From the IMG/VR virus record IMGVR_UViG_3300025073_000001: a DNA stretch of 47,864 nt. One strand, 5' to 3'. This DNA comes from a virus (Duplodnaviria > Heunggongvirae > Uroviricota > Caudoviricetes). Under the pieces are notes generated by a model, which saw only the letters and a program-made list of their open reading frames with translations, had not been told where the DNA came from and made no database searches. Shown here in pieces: positions 228-46,698 of the stretch. The position numbers and the translations under genes were made by a program. The number at the start of each line of letters is the position of its first letter. The stretch's first letter is position 1.

Positions 228-2075
228 TTAGACACCAGTCAATGCATCGTACGCCGAAACGTGAAGCCGAGTCAATCCAATAAAACGATATTTCTTTGCC
301 ATTTCCATGCACCATTTAGTCCGTTCATGGAAGTTTTCCCTTGAAGTTAAAGCTGGCATACAAACCACGTTCTTCAAAGGAATATTAAATGGTTTGATGT
401 AAGTTTCAAACATCTCAAAAATATCATCTTCGTTTGAAATGACAAACTTGAATTGATAATTATGATGGGATTTTATTCTTTCAATCGCCTCAGGAACAAT
501 TCTCTGCTTTTCAGTCATTCCTGAATTGGAAAGTTTCGGTGAACAATTGATTTGATCTAAGCATTCAAATAATAAATCATTTATATAAACAGTTCCGTTT
601 GTTTCAATCTCTTGAAATGAAGGCCATTTTATAGGAATCATTTCTCCTGAATATCCATCAGTAACACCAAGGCCTTCTATCGTATTCATAAAAATATTGA
701 AATTAACAATACTTTCTTGATGTTGCTTGATTGTTGGTTCTCCTCCGGTCCAAATTATATGAATCAGTCCAGAACAAATGTCATTATAAATTCCTTCGAC
801 TTTCCAATCATCAATTATTTGTTGAAATTCAACGTGTTCGCCTCGAAGCCAAACTGGTGTTGTATCACAATTATGAGAAAGAACTGATTCAACAAAATAA
901 TTTTTATGTGGTAAACATTCTATTTTTGCAATACGCCTATGCAGTCCATTATACTTTTCCAATTTAATAACTTTTAATCCATTCATAATGAACTCTTGAA
1001 TTCTTTTAACAAATTCTGCTTTACGTTCAACCGTATAATTAGACTTCTTCTTCATTTTATCATAAAAATCAATGAATAAAACTTCATATCCGTTTCGTTC
1101 ATATACAATTCTACGTTTATCTTCCCAGATTTCATCTCGATCATATTGTGGATAACTTGAATCATATGTCTCAATTAACTTGTTGGTTCCAGGAATTATA
1201 AAATCCGGATTCTGGTTTTCTATCCAAAAAGTTCCATTTCCACAATATTTAATGCCCCAATTATATTGCTTTTCTAAATTTAAAATTTTTTGTTCGGGGC
1301 CTGAAATCTTATGAATATGTCTATTACTCCAACTTTTTTTAACAACATCGACGTTCTTCATAGGGTTGTTTTCACGCATTCGAATAGAAACCTTTTCCCA
1401 ATCAATTTTTTTCTGACCTTCTGAATGTGCCTGTTTATATTCATCCGTGAACATATATGATTTATCTGCACCACCAAAGGCCTTTGTTATTTTGGCTTGT
1501 TTTTCATCTGAATAAGTTTCCCATCTAAATTTAGAATTCAACCCTTGAACAATATTAAATGGAACGTGCCATAATTCATCATTAAGTAATAATTGATCTG
1601 CACGTTTCCATTCATTTTTGACATAAAATAAATGATCTTTAGTACAAGTTAGACGTTTTTTATTTTCTAAGGTTATTGTTAATAGATTTTCATTATCAGT
1701 TTCAACAAATTCAAGACGAGTTATGTTTGTTTTTTCTATTTCATTAGAAACTTCATTGAATCCTAACAATTCATCACCAATCTTTAATTCTGATAAAGAT
1801 TTAGAACCTGTAATTGTTTTTATTTTATGATTATCTAAAAAGCAAGACCAAGTTGCTTTCCCTTCAATTTCTAAATCTCCAACATAAGGTTCATTCAAAT
1901 CAGGATTGATTTCACCCTTTTTGATCGAGTTCAAATATCTGATACTTGAACCACATTGAATGTTACATTGACTCAAACGGATGAAGTATGCAGGTACTCC
2001 TGACGTTTTTCCTTCTCCTTGAATGCTGAAGAATCGCTCGGAAACCAACAATTTGTTTGGAAGTATTTTTGTCAT
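228..2075 (-). CDS. queE: 7-carboxy-7-deazaguanine synthase QueE-like radical SAM protein, interrupted by an intein
   Basis: ERFFSIQGEG, FIRLSQCNIQC, W-S|C-D-T, TGGEP, IETNGT, CSPKL, RLHV motifs. Confidence 0.88.
   Translation of the reverse strand: MTKILPNKLLVSERFFSIQGEGKTSGVPAYFIRLSQCNIQCGSSIRYLNSIKKGEINPDLNEPYVGDLEIEGKATWSCFLDNHKIKTITGSKSLSELKIGDELLGFNEVSNEIEKTNITRLEFVETDNENLLTITLENKKRLTCTKDHLFYVKNEWKRADQLLLNDELWHVPFNIVQGLNSKFRWETYSDEKQAKITKAFGGADKSYMFTDEYKQAHSEGQKKIDWEKVSIRMRENNPMKNVDVVKKSWSNRHIHKISGPEQKILNLEKQYNWGIKYCGNGTFWIENQNPDFIIPGTNKLIETYDSSYPQYDRDEIWEDKRRIVYERNGYEVLFIDFYDKMKKKSNYTVERKAEFVKRIQEFIMNGLKVIKLEKYNGLHRRIAKIECLPHKNYFVESVLSHNCDTTPVWLRGEHVEFQQIIDDWKVEGIYNDICSGLIHIIWTGGEPTIKQHQESIVNFNIFMNTIEGLGVTDGYSGEMIPIKWPSFQEIETNGTVYINDLLFECLDQINCSPKLSNSGMTEKQRIVPEAIERIKSHHNYQFKFVISNEDDIFEMFETYIKPFNIPLKNVVCMPALTSRENFHERTKWCMEMAKKYRFIGLTRLHVSAYDALTGV
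870..1844 (-). mobile_element. 325-aa intein in QueE with a central PD-(D/E)xK (Vsr/DUF559-like) endonuclease domain
   Basis: Starts CFLDNHKI, block B CTKDH, ends NYFVESVLSHN followed by C+1; central NPDFIIPGTNKLIETY. Confidence 0.9.
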
Positions 2076-4923: not shown

Positions 4924-5275
4924 AATATTCTAGTGATTTTAATCTTGGTTCAAGTTTCTGTAAAATCCTAAATAAGGTTCTCACAATGTAAGGCATTTCA
5001 ATTGATTCAACTGTCAGTAATCCAAGTGGATAATTTAACCTGAATTTATCTAATTCAGTTGGTTCAGTTCCGATTAATTTCTGTCTTAGAATTGAATTGA
5101 ACCATTCAGTTACTTCCAATTGTTCATTGATTACAATTTCTGACAAAGGTTTTTCATCTTCAAATACTGCCTTGAATTTAATTGAAATTACTTCAATTTG
5201 ACCTTTATTCAAGATTGAAAATTGAATAGGTTTAGTTTTAACCTTTAACTTGAATTTCTTTTCTGTTATTTTCAT
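4907..5275 (-). CDS. hypothetical protein
   Basis: 122-aa ORF in operon. Confidence 0.6.
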   Translation of the reverse strand: MKITEKKFKLKVKTKPIQFSILNKGQIEVISIKFKAVFEDEKPLSEIVINEQLEVTEWFNSILRQKLIGTEPTELDKFRLNYPLGLLTVESIEMPYIVRTLFRILQKLEPRLKSLEYYETNN

Positions 5276-5279
5276 ATTT

Positions 5280-6590
5280 TTATTTTATTGGACATGATCC
5301 ATTATCACAATCTTGAAGATCAAAATCATCTTCATTGACATTGATGCTGTTTATTGGTTTAACCTTCAATTTTAATTCATCATATCTCTCTTTTGAGATG
5401 GTTTCATACGGCGCTTGATCAAATCCATGTCCATAATACAACAGAAAAGAAACAGTTTTTAAAGAATCATTGAAGTTTTCTTCTAACCATTCTTTAATTT
5501 CCGGAAGTTCGTCTTTCTTATAATAAATGGTACAAGAAACTGAATTATCACTCCAATTAGTCTGCATCCATTTGACCAATTCTAAATGCTCAATTGCTCC
5601 TAAAGAATCTCCGATCGGCGTTCCTTCTGGAACTTTACAAGGAAATTCCACGACAACGGTTGAAAAGTCTGGTTTTCCATCAAATCCTCTAACAAACTCA
5701 ACGAAATAACCATTATCCTTACAGATTTGAACGAGATTAGAACTCGCCGACATTCTAATTCTTCTAATGTAATATGGCCCTGCTGGTGAAGGATGAATTC
5801 CAGGAGTTACACCGGGTAGTAGGCTCAAAGTCCCACTCGGCTTCGTAGTTGAAATTTTAATTGAAGTTGGCCAATTATTCTGTTTAGAATATTCTTTATC
5901 AAATTCTCTCAAATGTAAGTAACAATCTGATAACCAACTCTTTTGTTCTTCTGAACTTTGAAGTAAGCCAGTTATTCCAATTCCCATTCTCATATTCTTA
6001 TGAACAATTTCTTCTGTTTCAGGAACTGAACATGGTAACGCAAGTGAATGTTTGTTTATTCGGTAAAGATAAGTTGCAACTTCAAACAATTCTTCTTTTG
6101 AAGATATATTTGGAAGGAAAATATCCGCCAGACAACACGTTTCAAAACAAAATAATGTTTGCTCCGCACAAGGATTATAGACAACCGCATCAATATCTGG
6201 ATATTCAGTTTCGCCTAATCTTCCACATTTTCTCGATAAATCTAAATTTATCAATCCATAAGGTTCACCTTGTTCGTATGTTTGCCAAAATTCTTGTGGT
6301 AAATCTTTAAAATCTAGTGGCGGAACAATGCTGTTATTTGAATTCGATCGCCAATTTGGAATTGAACCTAGATCCCAACGCTTTGCTTTAAGGTATTCCA
6401 AATCATCCCAATCACCAATTGCAAGTTCGGCAGAATTATGTGAAATACTTTCAATATTTCCAAGTCTTTCTCTTGCATAGAAACAATTAACCTCTTCAAC
6501 TTCAATATCAAACGTTTCAGCATTTCCCCAATCTTCTATATCAATTATATCAACAAAATCATAATCTTCAATATTTAACAATTCAGTCAT
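5280..6590 (-). CDS. nrdJ: class II (B12-dependent) ribonucleotide reductase, C-terminal half, preceded by split-intein C fragment
   Basis: NPCAEQ catalytic loop, RMGIGITG, TTKPSGT, QAPYE, C-terminal CDNGSCPIK; first 52 aa end SHN|S. Confidence 0.92.
   Translation of the reverse strand: MTELLNIEDYDFVDIIDIEDWGNAETFDIEVEEVNCFYARERLGNIESISHNSAELAIGDWDDLEYLKAKRWDLGSIPNWRSNSNNSIVPPLDFKDLPQEFWQTYEQGEPYGLINLDLSRKCGRLGETEYPDIDAVVYNPCAEQTLFCFETCCLADIFLPNISSKEELFEVATYLYRINKHSLALPCSVPETEEIVHKNMRMGIGITGLLQSSEEQKSWLSDCYLHLREFDKEYSKQNNWPTSIKISTTKPSGTLSLLPGVTPGIHPSPAGPYYIRRIRMSASSNLVQICKDNGYFVEFVRGFDGKPDFSTVVVEFPCKVPEGTPIGDSLGAIEHLELVKWMQTNWSDNSVSCTIYYKKDELPEIKEWLEENFNDSLKTVSFLLYYGHGFDQAPYETISKERYDELKLKVKPINSINVNEDDFDLQDCDNGSCPIK
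6435..6590 (-). mobile_element. split intein C fragment (52 aa)
   Basis: ETFDIEVEEVNCFYA (block F) and ISHN|S (block G, Ser+1). Confidence 0.88.
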
Positions 6591-7777
6591 ATTTCTAATA
6601 ATTCCTTTATTTGTATTTTAACTAATTCAACATTTTTTCTAATATCAAATTCCCAAAAATGATAATATTCAAACCCGTTATCTATGGCAATTTGTTTTTT
6701 TACTTCATCCTTTTTCCAAACATCATCAACTAAAACCTTTTCATTTTTACCAGGCCAATTAATTAATTGTCCAGATATAAATTTATTCGGATTGCAATGC
6801 CAGAAATCACCATGAACTTCTATTATAATTTTTTTACTTGTGATATAAAAATCATATAAATAAAACCTATCAACTTTAATTGGAAACTCTCGTTGAATTT
6901 GTTCAATTGAAATAACTTCTAATAAAAGATTTTCAAAATCATCATTTAATTTAGTCCTGCGACCGTTTTTCAATAAGTTTTTTAAAACCTTCTTCTTATA
7001 ATCATCATACAACAAAGTTCCAGTTATTTCACCATGTCTTGCTATGAAATTTTCTAATGTTTGTGAGCAAGTTCGTTTCCAATTTTCATATCTCAAATTG
7101 CCATCAACAATGCCATATTTATTAATAAAATTTTCTAACGTTTGTTTACAATCATTAATTTTTTTATCCCAACGGATTTTCCCATCAACTTCTCCAAATT
7201 TTAAAATGAAATTTTCAAGTGTTTGTTTCCCTTCATCTGAAGCAAAATACCACTTATTACCATATCTCTCCAAATTGGTTGCAAACATTGTACTTTTAAC
7301 AGCCCATCCATGCAAATCATCTCCGTATTTATCCTTTCGCGTTTCTGCTGTCTTTTTATTTATTTCTGGACATTTTTGTGGATTATCATACCCGAAATTC
7401 TTCAAAAAAGTTTCTTTTGATTTTGTTCTAAAGTGTTCAGTTTGTGAAATGTTTTCTGAACCATATTTATCCAACATCAATTTTCTAATATTCTTCTGGA
7501 CTTCTGGATTATTGAACGGATTTCCACATCCGTGTAATTTAAGTCTCTTTTCAAAAATTAAATTATAAACATATTCTGTCCCTTTACATAATTTAGAACA
7601 TGACATGATTGTCGGATTTTCCGAATCTATGTTTTTTTCCCAAGTCATTTTTTTAACAGTAATTAATTCTGAACAATTGATATTTGCACAATGAACTAAA
7701 TAACAATATGAATGACGTGTTGGGATTTTTGAATGACATTTGTTATAAATAGTGTCTTTTAAATTTTCTGTACTCAT
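6587..7777 (-). CDS. free-standing homing endonuclease, C-terminal Vsr/DUF559-like PD-(D/E)xK domain with repeated DNA-binding modules
   Basis: YDFYI...IIEVHGDFWH...D..K...A...G....FWE; KYG-x-x-N and QTLENFI repeats; sits between the split-intein halves. Confidence 0.8.
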   Translation of the reverse strand: MSTENLKDTIYNKCHSKIPTRHSYCYLVHCANINCSELITVKKMTWEKNIDSENPTIMSCSKLCKGTEYVYNLIFEKRLKLHGCGNPFNNPEVQKNIRKLMLDKYGSENISQTEHFRTKSKETFLKNFGYDNPQKCPEINKKTAETRKDKYGDDLHGWAVKSTMFATNLERYGNKWYFASDEGKQTLENFILKFGEVDGKIRWDKKINDCKQTLENFINKYGIVDGNLRYENWKRTCSQTLENFIARHGEITGTLLYDDYKKKVLKNLLKNGRRTKLNDDFENLLLEVISIEQIQREFPIKVDRFYLYDFYITSKKIIIEVHGDFWHCNPNKFISGQLINWPGKNEKVLVDDVWKKDEVKKQIAIDNGFEYYHFWEFDIRKNVELVKIQIKELLEI

Positions 7778-7804
7778 TGGAAGTGTCCTTATTTTTAGTT
7801 ATAC

Positions 7805-7820
7805 TATAAGTATCACACTT
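7805..7820 (-). promoter_or_regulatory. putative phage late promoter AAGTGTGATACTTATA
   Basis: Matches motif recurring upstream of structural genes. Confidence 0.55.
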
Positions 7821-7831
7821 CCAGAAAAAAC

Positions 7832-8905
7832 CTATTTATTTTTAACGAGTAATTGAAATTTATTTTTTTCACAAAGTTCAATCGCAGTTTTCCATTCAAT
7901 TTGCCCTGTTTCATTATTTTTAACCAACCACCTGTGATTTTTAGTACAAATATGAAATCCTTTTGTTGTACTTAGTTTTACAAGAGGTTGATTTCCTTGA
8001 ACAAATTTTGAAAGTATTGGATATTTTTTACCTTCAAATACTATGTTTTCTCCAACTTCAACATCTTTAATATGTTTCCATGACAAATCTTCCATTTGAA
8101 TTTCGTAATTTTCAGGAAGACATCTCCTAACATTTCCACTGACCACAATTTGTGCAATGATGTTCATAATATCTAAACAGTCAATCGGTCTTAATTTCTT
8201 TCCAACTCGACTATTTAATAAATTATTTATATTTTCAATACCATCTGCTAGAATACTTGGCCCGCTCGCCGTTCCTCCGAAACTTCTAATTGGTTCACCT
8301 TCACTTCTAATCAATTGACATGAATAAGTGAATCCTTTACCAGTATAAAAATGTGCTTTTAAAACCTTTCCAAGTAATTTGACCCACCCTTCTCTTGTAT
8401 CAGGGACGATATAATCTGCACTCTTATCATCCCAACGTTCAATTGCAATTTTTTCCTTTCTAAGTGCTGGGATTTGATAGACATATTCCTTTTGAATATT
8501 ATATCCAACCCCGCAACCAAGCATCAAAAGTTCAGCAGTCCAAGTAAACGGACGAATTGGTTCATTAACGACAACTCCTGCACAATTCTGTAAACTTGGC
8601 AACCCTAATTTATCAACCGTTTTCGTCCCAAGTTGCCATAAAAATCTCCCGGCGACGGATCCTTTTAAATTCAACAATATCTCGGCTAAACGATATTCTT
8701 CTTCATTCGTAAATCCAACCTTTAATTGCTTGTGACAAGCCTTAACTATTCTTTGAACAGTATCAATAAATTCTTCTGTTGGACTATTGACTTTATCTTC
8801 TTTTAATCTCCTTGCATAAGTTCTTTTATATGTGATGTATCCAATTTCTCCCCAAGGAGTTTTAATTTCACTTAATTTCTGAATCTGTTCTTCGGTCAAT
8901 GCCAT
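7832..8905 (-). CDS. nrdJ: class II ribonucleotide reductase, N-terminal half, ending in split-intein N fragment
   Basis: TYKRTYAR, GRFLWQLG, LQNC, GCGVG, DTREGW, GGTASGP, VVSGNVRR then CLPEN. Confidence 0.92.
   Translation of the reverse strand: MALTEEQIQKLSEIKTPWGEIGYITYKRTYARRLKEDKVNSPTEEFIDTVQRIVKACHKQLKVGFTNEEEYRLAEILLNLKGSVAGRFLWQLGTKTVDKLGLPSLQNCAGVVVNEPIRPFTWTAELLMLGCGVGYNIQKEYVYQIPALRKEKIAIERWDDKSADYIVPDTREGWVKLLGKVLKAHFYTGKGFTYSCQLIRSEGEPIRSFGGTASGPSILADGIENINNLLNSRVGKKLRPIDCLDIMNIIAQIVVSGNVRRCLPENYEIQMEDLSWKHIKDVEVGENIVFEGKKYPILSKFVQGNQPLVKLSTTKGFHICTKNHRWLVKNNETGQIEWKTAIELCEKNKFQLLVKNK
7835..8122 (-). mobile_element. split intein N fragment (96 aa)
   Basis: C1 start CLPENYEI, IKDVEVG, block B CTKNHRW, WKTAIEL, then stop. 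Confidence 0.88.
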
Positions 8906-9243
8906 TATTTCCCTTTTATCTCGTTTAAAATTATTTGTTTCAATTCCTGAATTTGGACTTCTTGTGAATCTTTCAATGCGAATGATTGAACTTTTACTTC
9001 CTTTTCTTCCGTTTCAAACACAATTCCAAGCCACCCCGAATCTCTCAATGAGGATTGTAATCTTTCAATTATTTGAACTTTCATTGAATATTCACGGAAC
9101 ATTCCGTTTGGAATGTAAATTATTAGAATTGGTTTAGGTTCAACTTTCCATTTAATATCATTTTGGAGTGAACTTGGCTCAACCTTAATTTTCTTCATTG
9201 GTTTAAGATTGTTATCTTGCTCAAATCCTGGGTAAAATTCCAT
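8905..9243 (-). CDS. hypothetical protein
   Basis: 112-aa ORF, TAATG-coupled to nrdJ-N. Confidence 0.6.
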   Translation of the reverse strand: MEFYPGFEQDNNLKPMKKIKVEPSSLQNDIKWKVEPKPILIIYIPNGMFREYSMKVQIIERLQSSLRDSGWLGIVFETEEKEVKVQSFALKDSQEVQIQELKQIILNEIKGK

Positions 9244-9255
9244 ATTATAATATTT

Positions 9256-10641
9256 TTAAAATAAATTTACATCTTCTCTTCTGTTATTCGCCATCAGTTC
9301 AAATTGCTTCGCTCCGTATTGGATTTGTAATTGATCCTCAGAAACGATTTGTTTCTTAACTTTTTTACCAGTTTCAGTTTTTTCTTCGTAAATTTCAATT
9401 AAACTCCTCGCAGTATCAAATTTTGCAGGAAATTGCATTCCATCTGGACCAAATCTATTTTTCTGAATGTCAAACATAGCAAAATTATTTATTTTATCAG
9501 TTTGACTCCTTCCAACAATTCCCCAAAAATCTGCTTCGGCACCTTTAGCATAGGCTCCTGCTAATGCTTCTTTATGACCAATTGATTTATTCGCATTCAA
9601 TTTATTTGATTGTGTAACTGACCAACACGCTGCTTCACTTTCTTGACCTAATCCTCTATATTCACGATAAAGTAACTGCAATAATTCATCTGTCCTAGCA
9701 TCTTTTCTCTTTGGCAATTTCATCAAATCCAAATAATCATTTAAAAATAACTTTGGTCTGATTCCTTGACTGTCAAGTTTATCTCGATGTCTCCTCAAAT
9801 CATCCATCGTAACAATTGAAGCGGGAAATTCTTTAATAATCAAACGTCCTGGATATTTTGTCAATCGCTTTTTAATATCTTCAACGTTGAACTTGAGATT
9901 ATCCAACGAAATTCCAGTCAATTTAGCATCATAACGAAACGCAACATAATTTTCATCCAATTCAAATGTCCAATGAACAACGTCATATCCAAGTTTTAAT
10001 GCTTCTGCTCCAAGGTGAACTAATGAAAAACTTTTTCCAACACCCTGATCGCCCATCCAAAAGCCAAACTTTCCAAGTGGAAGTCCTCCTCCCATTAAAT
10101 CATCAATTACTTTCCAGCCAGTTGGAATTCTTTTCACTTCACCTTGTTCCGAATATCTGTAATCTACATCATTAAGATAATCTTGCCCTAAATTATGTTC
10201 AACGAGTATTTTACTATTTGCTTCTGTAATTAACTTGACAAACGCATCTCTATCACCTTCCTTTAATAACTTGATCCCTTCTTCAACTGCTAACGAAACG
10301 TTTCTATGTCCTAAGAATTCAACAGTTTCTTTCTTGATGAATTCTTTATCTTCTGAATTTTGATTCTTGAAAACTTCCCTTAAACAATTGATTACTTCAG
10401 TTCTTAATAAACTTCCTTCTTGTATGTTTGAAACTTGAACCTTGAAAACTTCCAAGGTTGGTTGTAATTTGTATTCATTGAAGTAATTGATCGAATTTTC
10501 AACAATCCACTGCAAGCCCTGGTTTTCAAACAACTTTTTGTCTAAACTGTCAACAATTTGTTTTGCAAAGTCCCTGTCCGTTATGAATTGTGAAAGTAAT
10601 TTGGTCTGAAACCCAAACCCGAATTTTGCAAATGTATCCAT
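9256..10641 (-). CDS. replicative DNA helicase (DnaB / T4 gp41-like)
   Basis: IPTGW..ID...GGGL, Walker A GDQGVGKS, DYLDL, VTQSN, KNRFG. Confidence 0.92.
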   Translation of the reverse strand: MDTFAKFGFGFQTKLLSQFITDRDFAKQIVDSLDKKLFENQGLQWIVENSINYFNEYKLQPTLEVFKVQVSNIQEGSLLRTEVINCLREVFKNQNSEDKEFIKKETVEFLGHRNVSLAVEEGIKLLKEGDRDAFVKLITEANSKILVEHNLGQDYLNDVDYRYSEQGEVKRIPTGWKVIDDLMGGGLPLGKFGFWMGDQGVGKSFSLVHLGAEALKLGYDVVHWTFELDENYVAFRYDAKLTGISLDNLKFNVEDIKKRLTKYPGRLIIKEFPASIVTMDDLRRHRDKLDSQGIRPKLFLNDYLDLMKLPKRKDARTDELLQLLYREYRGLGQESEAACWSVTQSNKLNANKSIGHKEALAGAYAKGAEADFWGIVGRSQTDKINNFAMFDIQKNRFGPDGMQFPAKFDTARSLIEIYEEKTETGKKVKKQIVSEDQLQIQYGAKQFELMANNRREDVNLF

Positions 10642-15636: not shown

Positions 15637-16323
15637 TTATTTTAAATTTATAAGTTTCATTTCGCCGTAATTCATCCCTGCCTTGATATGGAAAGGAATG
15701 GTTTCAAATATTTCTATAATTTTCTTCAAAGTTGATTTTTCATCTTGTTTACTAAAATCAAACAAAAAACTGTCATAAGTATAAAGGATCAACTTGGTTT
15801 CTTTTTCCTTGAGTAATTCATTTAACCTTTGAATGATTCCCATGTTGAATTCAGTCTCTAAGTTCTGTAACATATAATTGAAAACCTTCCACTGCCCTAA
15901 GCCATCTTCAAGTTTCATTTCTTTATCATATAGGAAAGATTTCAAGTTTCCTGATTTGTATGCAATGAACGTTTGCTTTGATAAATCATTGATTGAAGTA
16001 AAAGGTTCAATTCCTAATAAATCTTTATCAATACCACCATAAATCTGCTTGAAGGTGTAATTCTTCGGATCTTCATCTTTTGGATAATATTTGGATAATT
16101 CCTGATAAATATTTTCAGGGAAACTTCGACCAATTATCAAATAGATCAAATATAAGTGGAATCCTGATAAATCAATTTCAAATAGGAATCCATTTTTATG
16201 TCTTGAGTAGAACCTTTCCCTACTACCATCATTTTTGTTCAACGCAGCATAATTGATTCCGTTAAAGTGATTACTCGGCCTTCCAGTTAACGTGAAAGGG
16301 TTGAATTCACATCGTTCAAACAT
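15637..16323 (-). CDS. compact family-A DNA polymerase, catalytic (C-terminal) part
   Basis: TLTGRPSN, motif A EIDLSGFH, motif B K...F...YGG, FNYMLQ, motif C YDSFLFD. Confidence 0.82.
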   Translation of the reverse strand: MFERCEFNPFTLTGRPSNHFNGINYAALNKNDGSRERFYSRHKNGFLFEIDLSGFHLYLIYLIIGRSFPENIYQELSKYYPKDEDPKNYTFKQIYGGIDKDLLGIEPFTSINDLSKQTFIAYKSGNLKSFLYDKEMKLEDGLGQWKVFNYMLQNLETEFNMGIIQRLNELLKEKETKLILYTYDSFLFDFSKQDEKSTLKKIIEIFETIPFHIKAGMNYGEMKLINLK

Positions 16324-16682
16324 TATTCAAATGTTTTTCTCAGAATTCGGCTTTCTTTGAAGTCAAAGTCTAAATCAAAGGAAAAATCCCAATCTACTTT
16401 CGGAGATAAATTCAATCTATAATGTGTTTTTGTTAAAGTTTCTTCCGGAACTATTTTTCTGACAAATCGATCAAATATTTGCCAGAACATAAAATTAAGT
16501 TCATTGGTTTCACCAGAAAGTTCGGAATATGGATAAATAGATTTGAATTCATCCGGAAATTTCCAACTATTCATTGTAATGAAAATTTCAGCAATTCTTT
16601 CGTCTGATAATTCTAATAAAATTCTTGAAATCTCATTTGCATATTTTCTAAGTTGATCTTCTGTAACTGGTAATGTATTCAT
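16323..16682 (-). CDS. hypothetical protein inserted between the two polymerase parts
   Basis: 119-aa ORF, no nuclease or intein motifs; TAATG-coupled to the polymerase C part. Confidence 0.6.
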   Translation of the reverse strand: MNTLPVTEDQLRKYANEISRILLELSDERIAEIFITMNSWKFPDEFKSIYPYSELSGETNELNFMFWQIFDRFVRKIVPEETLTKTHYRLNLSPKVDWDFSFDLDFDFKESRILRKTFE

Positions 16683-16690
16683 TTTTTATT

Positions 16691-17233
16691 TTAATTTGTG
16701 AATAATCCATTTTTCTCAATTTCTGCCAAATCTTTCAGAAACTGATTATATCTGATAAAAGGTTCAGTTACTTCAAAATTCTTGTAATGAACCATGAATT
16801 CATCCTTAATATCTCTACAGAATTCTAACCACTTCATTATTGGAATAGAATCATTGATGTTTTCAAAATCTGAAAATTGATTCCAATAACTTCTGATTAT
16901 ATTTCCTTCGTCAATGTCAAGTTTTTTGTTTGAGTTGAACCAAACCACCAATTCAGCCTCTTTCAATTCGCTTAAATTTACGTTATAAGGGCTTAAATAT
17001 TTCGCCTTGTAACAATAATCGTCGTTTGAAAGATAATCGCTTAGGCGTTGAATTTCGCAGCCTGTGACGTCATTGTGGTGCAATCCTAAAATACATTCTT
17101 CAAAGGAAGTCAAATTGTAGAAATAAATGAACGAAATCCTATTTTCTGACCAATGTTTCCGATGGTCAGATTGTATTGGAATTATCAGTTTCTTTCCCTT
17201 TGGAATCTGTTCTATTTTATCGGCGAAAAACAT
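16691..17233 (-). CDS. family-A DNA polymerase N-terminal part (degenerate exonuclease-like region)
   Basis: Ends LAEIEKNGL, the helix that precedes the polymerase domain in PolA; IPIMK..E motif. Confidence 0.65.
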   Translation of the reverse strand: MFFADKIEQIPKGKKLIIPIQSDHRKHWSENRISFIYFYNLTSFEECILGLHHNDVTGCEIQRLSDYLSNDDYCYKAKYLSPYNVNLSELKEAELVVWFNSNKKLDIDEGNIIRSYWNQFSDFENINDSIPIMKWLEFCRDIKDEFMVHYKNFEVTEPFIRYNQFLKDLAEIEKNGLFTN

Positions 17234-43501: not shown

Positions 43502-44134
43502 TTATTTTTCGCCCTTAGGTGCTTTTAACGTAAAGCGATCTAAAATATCGACATATTTATTAGCATTTTTATCAATGTAAAAATCAATGTCTTCATTCGT
43601 AGTTTTAGACGTTGGAAACTTTTGCAGACGAATGATAGTTCCGAGAAATTCAGCTTTTAACTTCGCACCTCCATCAAGACTATACCTAAGCTCTCCAACA
43701 TTGGTAACACTGAAAATGATGTTTTGAGATTTTCCTTCACTCTTAATCGTCCATCCTGACGTAAGAAATGGACTGATAAATCTTGCTTGTAATGTATCTA
43801 GAGGAGAAGCATTAGTCAATTCCTTAGCAGCATTTCCTTCTCTAATTATTTCGGTGATCCGATGATTATTTTTAGAAACTACTCTTGCAATCTCAGCCAT
43901 TTGTTCGGATTGTCGCTCGAAATCAGCGACTTTTTTGTTTATGACATCCGATAGAGCCCCAATCCGAACTCCGGAAATATTAAAATCTCCCGATGGATAG
44001 ACAACATCCCTGACTTCATAGTAAACGCTGCCTTTCAATAGTAAATAACTACTATCTCTGGCCGAAACTGTTGTCTGTGATGAAACCTGAAGACAGATTG
44101 CAAACGTGAATAAGAAAAGAAATATTTTTTTCAT
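43502..44134 (-). CDS. hypothetical protein with Sec signal peptide
   Basis: MKKIFLFLFTFAICLQVSS|Q. Confidence 0.65.
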   Translation of the reverse strand: MKKIFLFLFTFAICLQVSSQTTVSARDSSYLLLKGSVYYEVRDVVYPSGDFNISGVRIGALSDVINKKVADFERQSEQMAEIARVVSKNNHRITEIIREGNAAKELTNASPLDTLQARFISPFLTSGWTIKSEGKSQNIIFSVTNVGELRYSLDGGAKLKAEFLGTIIRLQKFPTSKTTNEDIDFYIDKNANKYVDILDRFTLKAPKGEK

Positions 44135-44151
44135 TGTTGTATCCTTTATTT

Positions 44152-46698
44152 TTAATTGTTTGAACGTTGCGTCTCAAACCATGAGGTTCCATCAAATACA
44201 AGTGTAAGCACATCGCCTGCGGTTGAGGTGAATGCCGACGACAAGTTAACTGTATTGGCGGCTCCGCTTCCATCGTCGGTAATGGTTACGAGGCCATCCA
44301 CGAAAATTAGTGTGAGTATTTGCCCGCTCTGTCCGCCTGTGATCGTGGCCAGGGTATTTCCCCCCGCGTCTCCAGTTACGGTGGTGACGTTGCGCGTAAT
44401 TGCCAGCGTGGTGGCTGCCGCTGCGAGTGTTGCGTTGTTGCGGGTGCTTGCGAGGGTTCCTGTTATTTTTGCGTTCCCGGTGACTTCAAGTTTTTCAGAT
44501 ACAGGGGTAGCGCCAATGCCTACGCTTCCCGCAAAGTAGGAGGGGGTTGTTCCGGCTGTGTAGACGGCATACTTATTCGTGCCTTTGGTCAATCCCTCAA
44601 CATAAAGGCCGTACTGGTTTGTCACAGTGCCGCCACCCCCAAGTTCATCACCTGCGTAGAAGTCATAGCCGCTTGTTACGTTTCCTTGCGACCATATTTC
44701 ACCTTTTATAGCAATTGCGCTCGCAACTGTTCCGCCAGATCGGCTTGCGCCTGCCCGGCCAGAAAACCCTATCGTGTTTGATACGGTTTCAGCGGCGTCA
44801 TCATTAAATGCGGTGTATGACGCCCCCGTAATTCCACCTGTTCCGCTGATACCACCAGCCGAAGAACTAGAGTAGGTAATTGCGCCGTTAAGCCCTACTA
44901 TTGTCCTATTGCTAACTGCGCTTGAGATATTAACGATCGTTGAATTTCTCACTCCATAGGTGCTCGTGCCGAATATTGTCGTTCCGGTGAACGTACTCTC
45001 AAATAGATTGCCGATCACATTGGCATAACTTACGTCCTTAGATTGACTTGTATGAAGCAGCGATGTAGGCGCAGTGATTCCTATACCGGCATTGCCATTG
45101 TCCAGCACATTGAGCGCATCCGTGCCTGCGCTGTTTTCTACAAGAAGGGCGGTTGTGGAAGATGTTGCTCCCGACCCTTTCACCTGAAGCCTTGCGGTCG
45201 GGGCCGTTTCTCCTATGCCAGCATTCCCCGTACTCAAAATGGTCATTACTCTTGAAAGCGTACCCTCCCGGATTAAATTAAACCCCAGCGTCGCATCCTC
45301 CGTAGCATCCACCGCATCGCTCCAAGTCACTTCCTGCGTTGCCGCTACCCGGTTCGTACCGCTCCCGTTTTCAAGTTCCCATTTCTTTCCAATGCCAAAA
45401 TTTGTTGTTGCCGTGCCTGATGTTGTATGAGTACTCTGCTCTGTGTATGTAACCGCGTTTGTTACTGCATCGTCCTGTTCAACGTGGAATTTAAAATCGG
45501 GGGTGGTGGCGCCTATGCCAGTAAATCCAGTAGTAACATTATGTGTAAATGTACCTAAATCTAAGTTTGAGCTACTCCCGATAGAGAAATTCTCACTTTG
45601 ATTTATGCCCGCATATAAACTGCCATCTGGATTTTTGTACTGAATTGCTGAGTTCTGTGAAGCTCCGGTTCTTTCAAATAATAATCCGATAGCAGAAGTA
45701 GACGTAACGTGCGCTGGTGCTTGTGGTGAACTGGTTCCTACACCGATCCGCCCGTTTGTTGTATTAATATCAAAAACAGTTGTACCAGCAGCATTTGTAA
45801 AGTTAAATGCCGCCGTGGAGTTTACAAGAGGCTTTAAAACAAAAGAATTTGCAGCCCCAACCGTAAAAGTAACCGCGTTTGATGCATCATAACTAAGTCT
45901 TAATTGCTCTGTGGTTTTCAAAACGCCTAATCCGGCTGATGTCGTTGTTGTGCCTATTGCCACATTATCGGTAGTTGCTGTCAGGTATGTTGTTGCCCCG
46001 CCGTCTGTCCATTTTGACGCTGATGCTGCCGGAATATCCGCCGCCGTCAAAGCCGACATCGATGGCGTTCCCCCCGCGTCTCCGCTCCGAAAAACAAGGT
46101 TTGCGGCTTGTGCGGCCCATGTTGCGGACAAGGTGCCAGATGTGGTTACAGGTGTTCCGTCTTCGGTAAATTCGGCTGGAAGGTCTAGTCCAACGCTCGT
46201 GACGCCTGTGTTTGAAACCGTAGCTACTCCAGCAACCGTACTTACGTCAATACCCGTTCCCGCGCTTACCCCCACAATAGGCAATGTCACGCCCGTACCA
46301 CCCGAAATATCAAGGGCCTGATCGGTAAGTGATAGGTTTTGTGCGTCTGTATCGGGAGGATTTAAATGATACCAAACTCCTGATCTGTATCGATAAAGTG
46401 AATCACAGTCATTTAAAACGACCTCACTCTGCCATTTTGTAGGAGTATAAGCAGGCGGAACACATCCAAGAATTTCATCTATGGTTTTACCAATTTCAAC
46501 CCAAGTTGTTCCAATTTTCCACAGATAAAATGTTTGATCAGTAGTATCAAGAACTATTCGACAACCTTTTGAACCAGGATTGAACGTTGGTGGTGCATTA
46601 GTGATGCACCAAGGTGGAGCCCATAAATTATTTTGAGATGAAGCAGATGTTGAAATTGAAATTAATGCAAATATAAAGAATAGTTTTTTCAGATTCAT
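44152..46698 (-). CDS. fibre/adhesin-like repeat protein with Sec signal peptide
   Basis: MNLKKLFFIFALISISTSASS|Q; six G-x-x-G-I-G...P...L-x-V repeats; Thr/Gly/Ala-rich; ends DGTSWFE. Confidence 0.7.
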   Translation of the reverse strand: MNLKKLFFIFALISISTSASSQNNLWAPPWCITNAPPTFNPGSKGCRIVLDTTDQTFYLWKIGTTWVEIGKTIDEILGCVPPAYTPTKWQSEVVLNDCDSLYRYRSGVWYHLNPPDTDAQNLSLTDQALDISGGTGVTLPIVGVSAGTGIDVSTVAGVATVSNTGVTSVGLDLPAEFTEDGTPVTTSGTLSATWAAQAANLVFRSGDAGGTPSMSALTAADIPAASASKWTDGGATTYLTATTDNVAIGTTTTSAGLGVLKTTEQLRLSYDASNAVTFTVGAANSFVLKPLVNSTAAFNFTNAAGTTVFDINTTNGRIGVGTSSPQAPAHVTSTSAIGLLFERTGASQNSAIQYKNPDGSLYAGINQSENFSIGSSSNLDLGTFTHNVTTGFTGIGATTPDFKFHVEQDDAVTNAVTYTEQSTHTTSGTATTNFGIGKKWELENGSGTNRVAATQEVTWSDAVDATEDATLGFNLIREGTLSRVMTILSTGNAGIGETAPTARLQVKGSGATSSTTALLVENSAGTDALNVLDNGNAGIGITAPTSLLHTSQSKDVSYANVIGNLFESTFTGTTIFGTSTYGVRNSTIVNISSAVSNRTIVGLNGAITYSSSSAGGISGTGGITGASYTAFNDDAAETVSNTIGFSGRAGASRSGGTVASAIAIKGEIWSQGNVTSGYDFYAGDELGGGGTVTNQYGLYVEGLTKGTNKYAVYTAGTTPSYFAGSVGIGATPVSEKLEVTGNAKITGTLASTRNNATLAAAATTLAITRNVTTVTGDAGGNTLATITGGQSGQILTLIFVDGLVTITDDGSGAANTVNLSSAFTSTAGDVLTLVFDGTSWFETQRSNN

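Follow-up and report, generated by a model that had tools for sequence, protein, structure and literature searches.

The fractured genes described by Dassa et al. in 2009 (PMC2677866) are the nearest published precedent for the locus reported here: same-strand open reading frames (ORFs) encode the pieces of one enzyme, intein halves occupy the broken ends, and an endonuclease gene lies between them. Two such genes from the GOS metagenomes, those carrying the NrdJ-1 and NrdJ-2 inteins, encode phage class II ribonucleotide reductases (RNRs) as two adjacent ORFs with Cys1 and Ser+1 splicing chemistry; both inteins are split at the canonical endonuclease position, the free-standing endonuclease gene between the halves has a hairpin in its 5′ untranslated region (UTR), and both sit at the thiyl-radical cysteine. 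The same layout is present in the nrdJ locus of an uncultured phage (Caudoviricetes; IMG/VR record IMGVR_UViG_3300025073_000001), of which we examined a stretch of 47,864 nt, hereafter the window. Unlike in NrdJ-1 and NrdJ-2, the NPC motif is intact in the window and the intein is inserted at GNVRR|SA, which corresponds to R319/S320 of the L. leichmannii ribonucleoside-triphosphate reductase (RTPR) and lies 88 RTPR residues upstream of C408. The original prediction for this DNA had likened the layout to that of known fractured genes and had placed the intein away from the NrdJ-1 site, with the NPC loop undisturbed, and both statements agree with the 2009 description and with the uninterrupted NPCAE of the window. 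Judged from sequence, the locus holds a genuine, well-preserved split intein within a fractured gene for a monomeric class II reductase, and this intein very probably splices in trans.

Three successive minus-strand ORFs make up the locus, at 7832..8905 (357 aa), 6587..7777 (396 aa) and 5280..6590 (436 aa), and fill exactly the span 5280-8905 that the original prediction of a fractured class II RNR had given. Residues 1-261 of the first ORF, NrdJ-N (8123..8905, minus strand), form an N-extein that carries the Pfam domains RNR_Alpha and RNR-II_ins_dom and ends in VVSGNVRR, and residues 262-357 (7835..8122, minus strand) form the 96-aa IntN, which opens with Cys1 in CLPENY, bears the block B T-x-x-H motif as CTKNH, and is terminated directly by the stop codon at 7832-7834. 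The last ORF, NrdJ-C, begins with a 52-aa IntC (6435..6590, minus strand), which aligns to the C-terminal part of contiguous mini-inteins and in which block F reads FDIEVEEVNCFYA and block G reads ESISHN, and continues from Ser+1 (SAELAIG) as a C-extein of 384 aa plus stop (5280..6434, minus strand). The two intein segments are thus those claimed earlier (CLPEN...CTKNH...stop and ...ISHN|S), and the 396-aa endonuclease gene fills the gap between them.

The two exteins together account for one reductase. Against L. leichmannii RTPR (PDB 1l1l), the only solved monomeric class II reductase and our reference throughout, the N-extein aligns to residues 10-319 (E 4e-28), its last residue matching R319, and the C-extein resumes at S320 (aligned stretches 318-477 and 521-739); NrdJ-N thus has exactly 96 surplus residues at its end and NrdJ-C 52 at its start. 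Pfam and PHROGs assign the two outer ORFs to the N- and C-terminal parts of a B12-dependent ribonucleotide reductase, positions 21-283 of PHROG 367 being covered by NrdJ-N and 284-697 by NrdJ-C. Five features of RTPR (C119, C408, E410, C419 and the C-terminal Cys pair) are conserved across the exteins, the C119 equivalent in the N-extein and NPCAE with the thiyl-radical Cys, the C419 equivalent and the C-terminal CDNGSCPIK in the C-extein, and on the strength of this alignment we assign the enzyme to the B12-dependent monomeric class II reductases (RTPR / NrdJm).

Removal of the intein halves predicts a product of 261+384 = 645 aa with the junction VSGNVRR|SAELAIG, and this product has natural counterparts. 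Two members of the 90%-identity cluster of NrdJ-C (P0239 and P0241) are uninterrupted, 645 aa in length and 90-94% identical to both exteins, and their junction reads VSGNVRRSAELAIG, the same as that of the predicted spliced protein; at all 21 of 21 more distantly related IMG/VR loci, GNVRRSAQ is likewise uninterrupted. Because the 645-aa homologues match the predicted product in length as well as in junction, they are the strongest single argument that the 148 extra residues are removed precisely and at the protein level. The earlier claim that joining the exteins restores a conserved motif holds on the same grounds. A further member of the NrdJ-C cluster, P0242 (325 aa), has some 300 residues that are 90% identical to the C-extein after an unrelated leader starting MQVTSINIKNNEII, and may be the C-half of a gene fractured at another site. 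A nucleotide search (blastn) with the locus returned extein matches only, a tblastn search of GenBank phages with IntN gave no match, a metagenome scan for the coding pattern GNVRRCLPENY found nothing, and scans of IMG/VR with P0001 and P0048 as queries recovered no split allele.

The extra residues are intein halves by several measures. Cys1, TxxH, the F-block Asp (FDIEV), the terminal HN (SHN) and Ser+1 are all present across IntN and IntC, in agreement with the Cys1/Ser+1 chemistry proposed originally, the F-block His being the single exception. In NrdJ-N numbering the IntN residues are C262, T321 and H324, the last of which does not vary, and the other two hardly vary, across 21 split homologues (profile A2). 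A HMMER search of 1.84 billion representatives with IntN returned 145 matches, of which approximately 80 were inspected; in most of these the homologous segment starts with Cys immediately after GG[VI]RR or GNVRR of a reductase. The inspected matches include both long proteins with contiguous inteins (>900 aa) and proteins that stop no more than 20 residues past IntN; the contiguous-intein homologues end in HN|SA, and some homologues at RR|S carry Pfam Hint, Intein_splicing and LAGLIDADG over the intein interval. Placed end to end, IntN and IntC (148 aa) align over their full length with nine contiguous mini-inteins (140-154 aa) at the same site, and the break between them falls in the variable linker from the block B region to block F, the interval filled by LAGLIDADG domains in P0114 and P0020. 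By these alignments the break point is the canonical position for a split or for nested endonuclease insertion.

Among inteins of solved structure the nearest relative is gp41-1 (PDB 6riz and 6qaz), to which the IntN part of the family profile aligns from blocks A to B with E 2.9e-10 (6riz), followed by the PRP8, DnaE and DnaB inteins. The gene of gp41-1, like that of the window intein, is a fractured phage gene, and the two inteins agree in charge polarity, whereas the host protein of gp41-1 is a DnaB-like helicase and its aligned chain has Ser rather than Thr in block B; the window halves are also longer than those of gp41-1 and have a loop inserted from block F to block G. In the window the C-terminal half of IntN carries a charge of +6 and IntC one of -13. 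This polarity, with a basic IntN and an acidic IntC, is not an unusual inversion, since Dassa et al. report a positive IntN and a negative IntC for both gp41-1 and gp41-8, the polarity of NrdJ-1 being different (PMC2677866).

The same junction is occupied in many other ways, and the novelty of the site implied by the original prediction was overstated. Split alleles of the window intein are found in P0001, a 356-aa NrdJ-N (extein 85% and IntN 64% identical to the window), in P0235, a 436-aa NrdJ-C (extein 83%, IntC 71%), and in P0236, which has a third IntC allele at its start and a second, LAGLIDADG-type intein further on. Between the window and these alleles the intein parts are 64-71% identical and the exteins 83-85% identical; the splicing nucleophiles, T..H, the terminal HN and Ser+1 are retained in all three. 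An orthologue of the endonuclease (P0149/P0246, 74% identical) is intact, and P0235 and P0246 each lie on a 4277-b contig, that match alone being the ground for linking the two. Viruses in IMG/VR (one of them a giant-virus metagenome-assembled genome), cyanobacteria, Asgard archaea and Bdellovibrionota have contiguous inteins at VVAGNVRR|CLPE. Several of the contiguous forms (the metagenomic proteins P0004, P0005, P0026, P0055 and P0114 and the NrdJ proteins of Chroococcidiopsis and Coleofasciculus) share with the window the insertion point, the CLP... start and the ...SHN|SA end and have splicing blocks homologous to those of the window, and these mini-inteins and LAGLIDADG inteins are single polypeptides, whereas the window intein is cut by a separate gene. 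Many split forms at RR|S were also seen among the inspected HMMER matches, in class I as well as class II reductases, and RR|S ranks among the busiest intein sites in ribonucleotide reductases.

Other viral genomes show different combinations of states within nrdJ. The syntenic relatives L001 (6001-8895) and L002, which share with the window the neighbouring 403-aa ORF, 5′-3′ exonuclease and DnaB, encode a 965-aa NrdJ with no intein at RR|S and a contiguous insertion of approximately 310 aa in the NPC region. In L038:2579-5762 (plus strand), and also in L043, NrdJ has a contiguous 164-aa mini-intein at GNVRR|C...SHN|SA together with a second intein split at NP|C, whose IntN is a tail of 100 aa and whose IntC terminates in VHN|CAE; these halves are only 188 nt apart, with no endonuclease gene between them. 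As a separate observation, P0048 (372 aa) and P0146 (515 aa) belong to one 90%-identity cluster; one of them stops just past an IntN at GNVRR|C, whereas the other reads on through an unbroken mini-intein of 145 aa, and the pair reflects either a split of very recent date or a gene call that was cut short.

The gene between the halves (6587..7777, minus strand) was earlier called a nuclease, and its domain content and predicted fold agree. The protein matches Pfam DUF7487 and, weakly, DUF559, as well as PHROG 3339 and 12131, both of which are annotated 'homing endonuclease', and some of its homologues are named Vsr endonuclease by JGI. Sequence searches against the PDB returned only noise, and comparison at the level of structure was needed. 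An AlphaFold (AF2) model built with 32 homologues (predicted local distance difference test, pLDDT, 87) has three parts, namely a Cys-rich beta module (residues about 14-65), a series of helical repeats corresponding to DUF7487 (residues about 68-270) with the motif TLENFI..G...G..Y, and a C-terminal alpha/beta domain. The model and the repeat consensus of the homologue alignments place the N-terminal part, presumed to bind DNA, at 6968..7738 (minus strand), and the C-terminal catalytic domain (residues about 276-396) is encoded at 6590..6952 (minus strand). Foldseek matches the C-terminal domain to the catalytic domain of I-Bth0305I (3r3p, probability 1.00, TMt 0.69-0.73) and to E. coli Vsr (1vsr and 1cw0, probability 1.00). 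E320 never varies across the 32 homologues, and D309, H327 and D357 are each kept in at least 90% of them; by motif comparison with the published descriptions of the Vsr-like, or EDxHD, catalytic residue set (PMC2677866 and PMC3239194), these four correspond to Vsr D51, position 62, H69 and D97. By its modelled fold and conserved residues, the endonuclease is of the Vsr-like (EDxHD, I-Bth0305I-type) family that was first described in fractured genes (PMC2677866). It shares with I-Bth0305I (Taylor et al. 2011, PMC3239194) the catalytic fold, the D/E/H/D residues and a bipartite build with an N-terminal region presumed to bind DNA, but I-Bth0305I is intron-encoded in recA and has NUMOD motifs, whereas the window enzyme is free-standing within an intein and has the Cys-rich module and DUF7487 repeats instead.

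Relatives of this endonuclease are found within other broken genes. In three metagenome contigs (L088, L094 and L100) they lie between the IntN and IntC of ligase-like genes that are interrupted at the KxDG adenylation motif (KLDG|C...VHN|S or VHN|C); in L122 intein halves flank a relative in a similar manner, and in L089 and L115 only the IntC side is present. A homologue also lies inside a Rad50/SbcC-like ATPase at L081:3054-6480 (plus strand), and in the same arrangement in L080 (344-348-kb IMG/VR contigs), where the break falls in the Walker A loop, or P-loop (GKNGSGK|C ... THN|SS). That intein is atypically split, with an IntN of only about 31 aa and an IntC of about 119 aa that bears block B (TSPDH), and an ATGA overlap joins the endonuclease to the C-half. 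In the same viral record as the window, and outside of it, a 658-aa open frame contains another match to the endonuclease, over residues 93-228 of its DUF7487 repeats and with 36% identity (L087, G000:C1:54503-54916, minus strand). The window also contains a 615-aa ORF (read as QueE) at 228-2075 (minus strand) with a contiguous intein, recognized by Pfam Intein_splicing over residues 93-402 and by Hint and PT-HINT, and therefore holds at least two inteins; homology of the endonuclease to the nuclease part of this QueE intein was considered and rejected (BLASTP E>1).

The three genes are closely spaced, and the signals between them may serve translational control. A hairpin with an 8-9-bp stem (GGAAGUGU...ACACUUCC) occupies 7779..7822 (minus strand) of the 54-nt spacer before the endonuclease start; its 3′ arm stops one base before the AUG and is immediately preceded, on its 5′ side, by AAGGA, which resembles a Shine-Dalgarno motif, and the loop has TATAGTATAA in place of TATAAATA. 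The inverted repeat is exact and unique within the window, with 0 expected in shuffles. Of 16 endonuclease 5′ UTRs, 15 were reported to have hairpins near the ribosome-binding site, commonly accompanied by a late-promoter motif (Dassa 2009, PMC2677866). Downstream, the endonuclease stop overlaps the NrdJ-C start as ATGA at 6587-6590, which suggests that translation of NrdJ-C is coupled to that of the endonuclease, and no terminator-like site was found between the three genes.

We propose the following model for the origin and expression of this locus. An ancestral reductase gene would have held a mini-intein of ~148 aa between R and S of GNVRR|SAEL, and a free-standing gene for a Vsr-like (EDxHD) endonuclease would have entered its variable linker, so that the upstream ORF kept the 96-aa IntN and the downstream ORF the 52-aa IntC. 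A single transcript probably spans the three genes, with the start of the endonuclease masked by the hairpin and NrdJ-C coupled to it through the ATGA. Once both proteins have been made, IntN, basic in its C-terminal half, and the strongly acidic IntC would associate and form the HINT fold, whereupon thioester formation at Cys1, attack by Ser+1 and cyclisation of the terminal Asn would yield the reductase, 645 aa long and joined natively as VRR-SAE. Cassette-free alleles of co-infecting relatives are the most likely targets of the endonuclease, and cleavage there would allow the whole IntN-endonuclease-IntC cassette to be copied in.

Several observations weigh against this model. The F-block His is replaced by Asn in the window intein and in P0235, His being kept in P0236 and in the contiguous relatives, and this substitution could slow the last steps of splicing. 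Neither half reaches E 0.1 with the Pfam Hint or intein models, IntN as a single sequence finds no significant solved intein in the PDB, a family profile being needed for that, and the hairpin is unexceptional in stability (-14.2 kcal/mol, z only -1.6).

The most durable of the alternatives, which we nevertheless regard as improbable, is that the intein halves never splice and serve only to hold the two reductase fragments together by non-covalent docking. Such an arrangement has a precedent in Aeromonas phage Aeh1 (nrdA-a/mobE/nrdA-b), where an RNR large subunit is likewise cut by a free-standing homing endonuclease gene and where, according to the published account (Friedrich 2007; Crona 2011, PMC3045599), there is no intein and the halves assemble via their tails without splicing, so that a phage RNR can work in pieces. 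The Asn in block F would fit a docking function as well, and the strong charge complementarity of IntN and IntC would favour tight association. The window ends bear complete intein halves, however, in contrast to the tails described for Aeh1, and the nucleophiles, TxxH and HN are all kept in alleles that have diverged by 30-36% in the intein, although docking alone would need none of them. A 148-aa HINT domain kept in the barrel beside a conserved RNR motif would, furthermore, probably disturb the active site.

Less probable again is a reductase gene that is already dead, in which a recent endonuclease insertion wrecked a contiguous intein and the two ORFs are now decaying. Homing endonucleases do inactivate genes, and degenerate phage nrdA genes have been described (Dwivedi et al. 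2013), but here neither ORF is truncated and every catalytic cysteine is present, the same split layout recurs in at least two further diverged alleles with nearly unchanged lengths (356 vs 357 aa and 436 vs 436 aa), and the orthologous endonuclease is intact too. An intron of group I or II that holds the endonuclease ORF and is removed from the RNA, or else a chimeric assembly, is barely credible: Vsr-like endonucleases do occur in group I introns as well (Dassa 2009, PMC2677866; I-Bth0305I), but an Rfam scan of 5000-9300 shows no intron match at E<=1, which leads us to reject the group I reading, the extra coding sequence on both sides is in frame and homologous to intein halves, and the three proteins of the window are found, identical, on two contigs listed under three source collections (JGI/IMG, Logan and ENA), so that a one-off assembly artefact is unlikely. 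Trans-splicing of a split intein accounts best for the locus as a whole.

Some further observations concern the genome and the remainder of the window. The longer of the two contigs spans 229,053 b, which suggests a jumbo phage; the IMG/VR record itself, at 59 kb, has an estimated completeness of 31%. Three ORFs at 15637-17233 (minus strand), which had been read as a polymerase bisected by an unrelated ORF, gave no Pfam match at E<=0.01. The GC content rises to 0.46-0.49 at 44001-46000, inside an 848-aa ORF (44152-46698), from about 0.30-0.38 elsewhere in the window.

The fractured-gene layout has been known since 2009, and the locus is of value as a clean evolutionary series and as the source of a candidate tool for ligation, rather than for any new mechanism. 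Literature searches found neither a publication on naturally split inteins at RR|S of RNRs nor a named InBase allele, a result that does not prove absence. It is conceivable, though less likely than not, that the window intein is the first natural split intein in print at this site and that it represents a distinct 'CLPxxY...SHN' mini-intein lineage, related to gp41-1 and marked by an unusually acidic 52-aa IntC and by Asn for the F-block His, which may be fast, orthogonal to the inteins in use as tools, and new in its junction preferences (Arg at -1, Ser-Ala at +1/+2). Some of the fastest ligation tools are natural split inteins of fractured phage genes, such as gp41-1, NrdJ-1 and IMPDH-1. 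To these an orthogonal pair could be added by an intein that is related to gp41-1 but differs in its native junction residues, and use of the window intein as an orthogonal ligation tool is possible; as a discovery, the locus is incremental.

All stages are represented at one site in ribonucleotide reductases, from the empty allele through the contiguous mini-intein and the LAGLIDADG-bearing intein to the fractured form, and the locus gives a further clear snapshot of the pathway put forward in 2009, in which a mini-intein is invaded by a free-standing endonuclease gene and becomes a split intein. It also shows the EDxHD endonuclease family to be a recurrent gene-fracturing agent in large phages.

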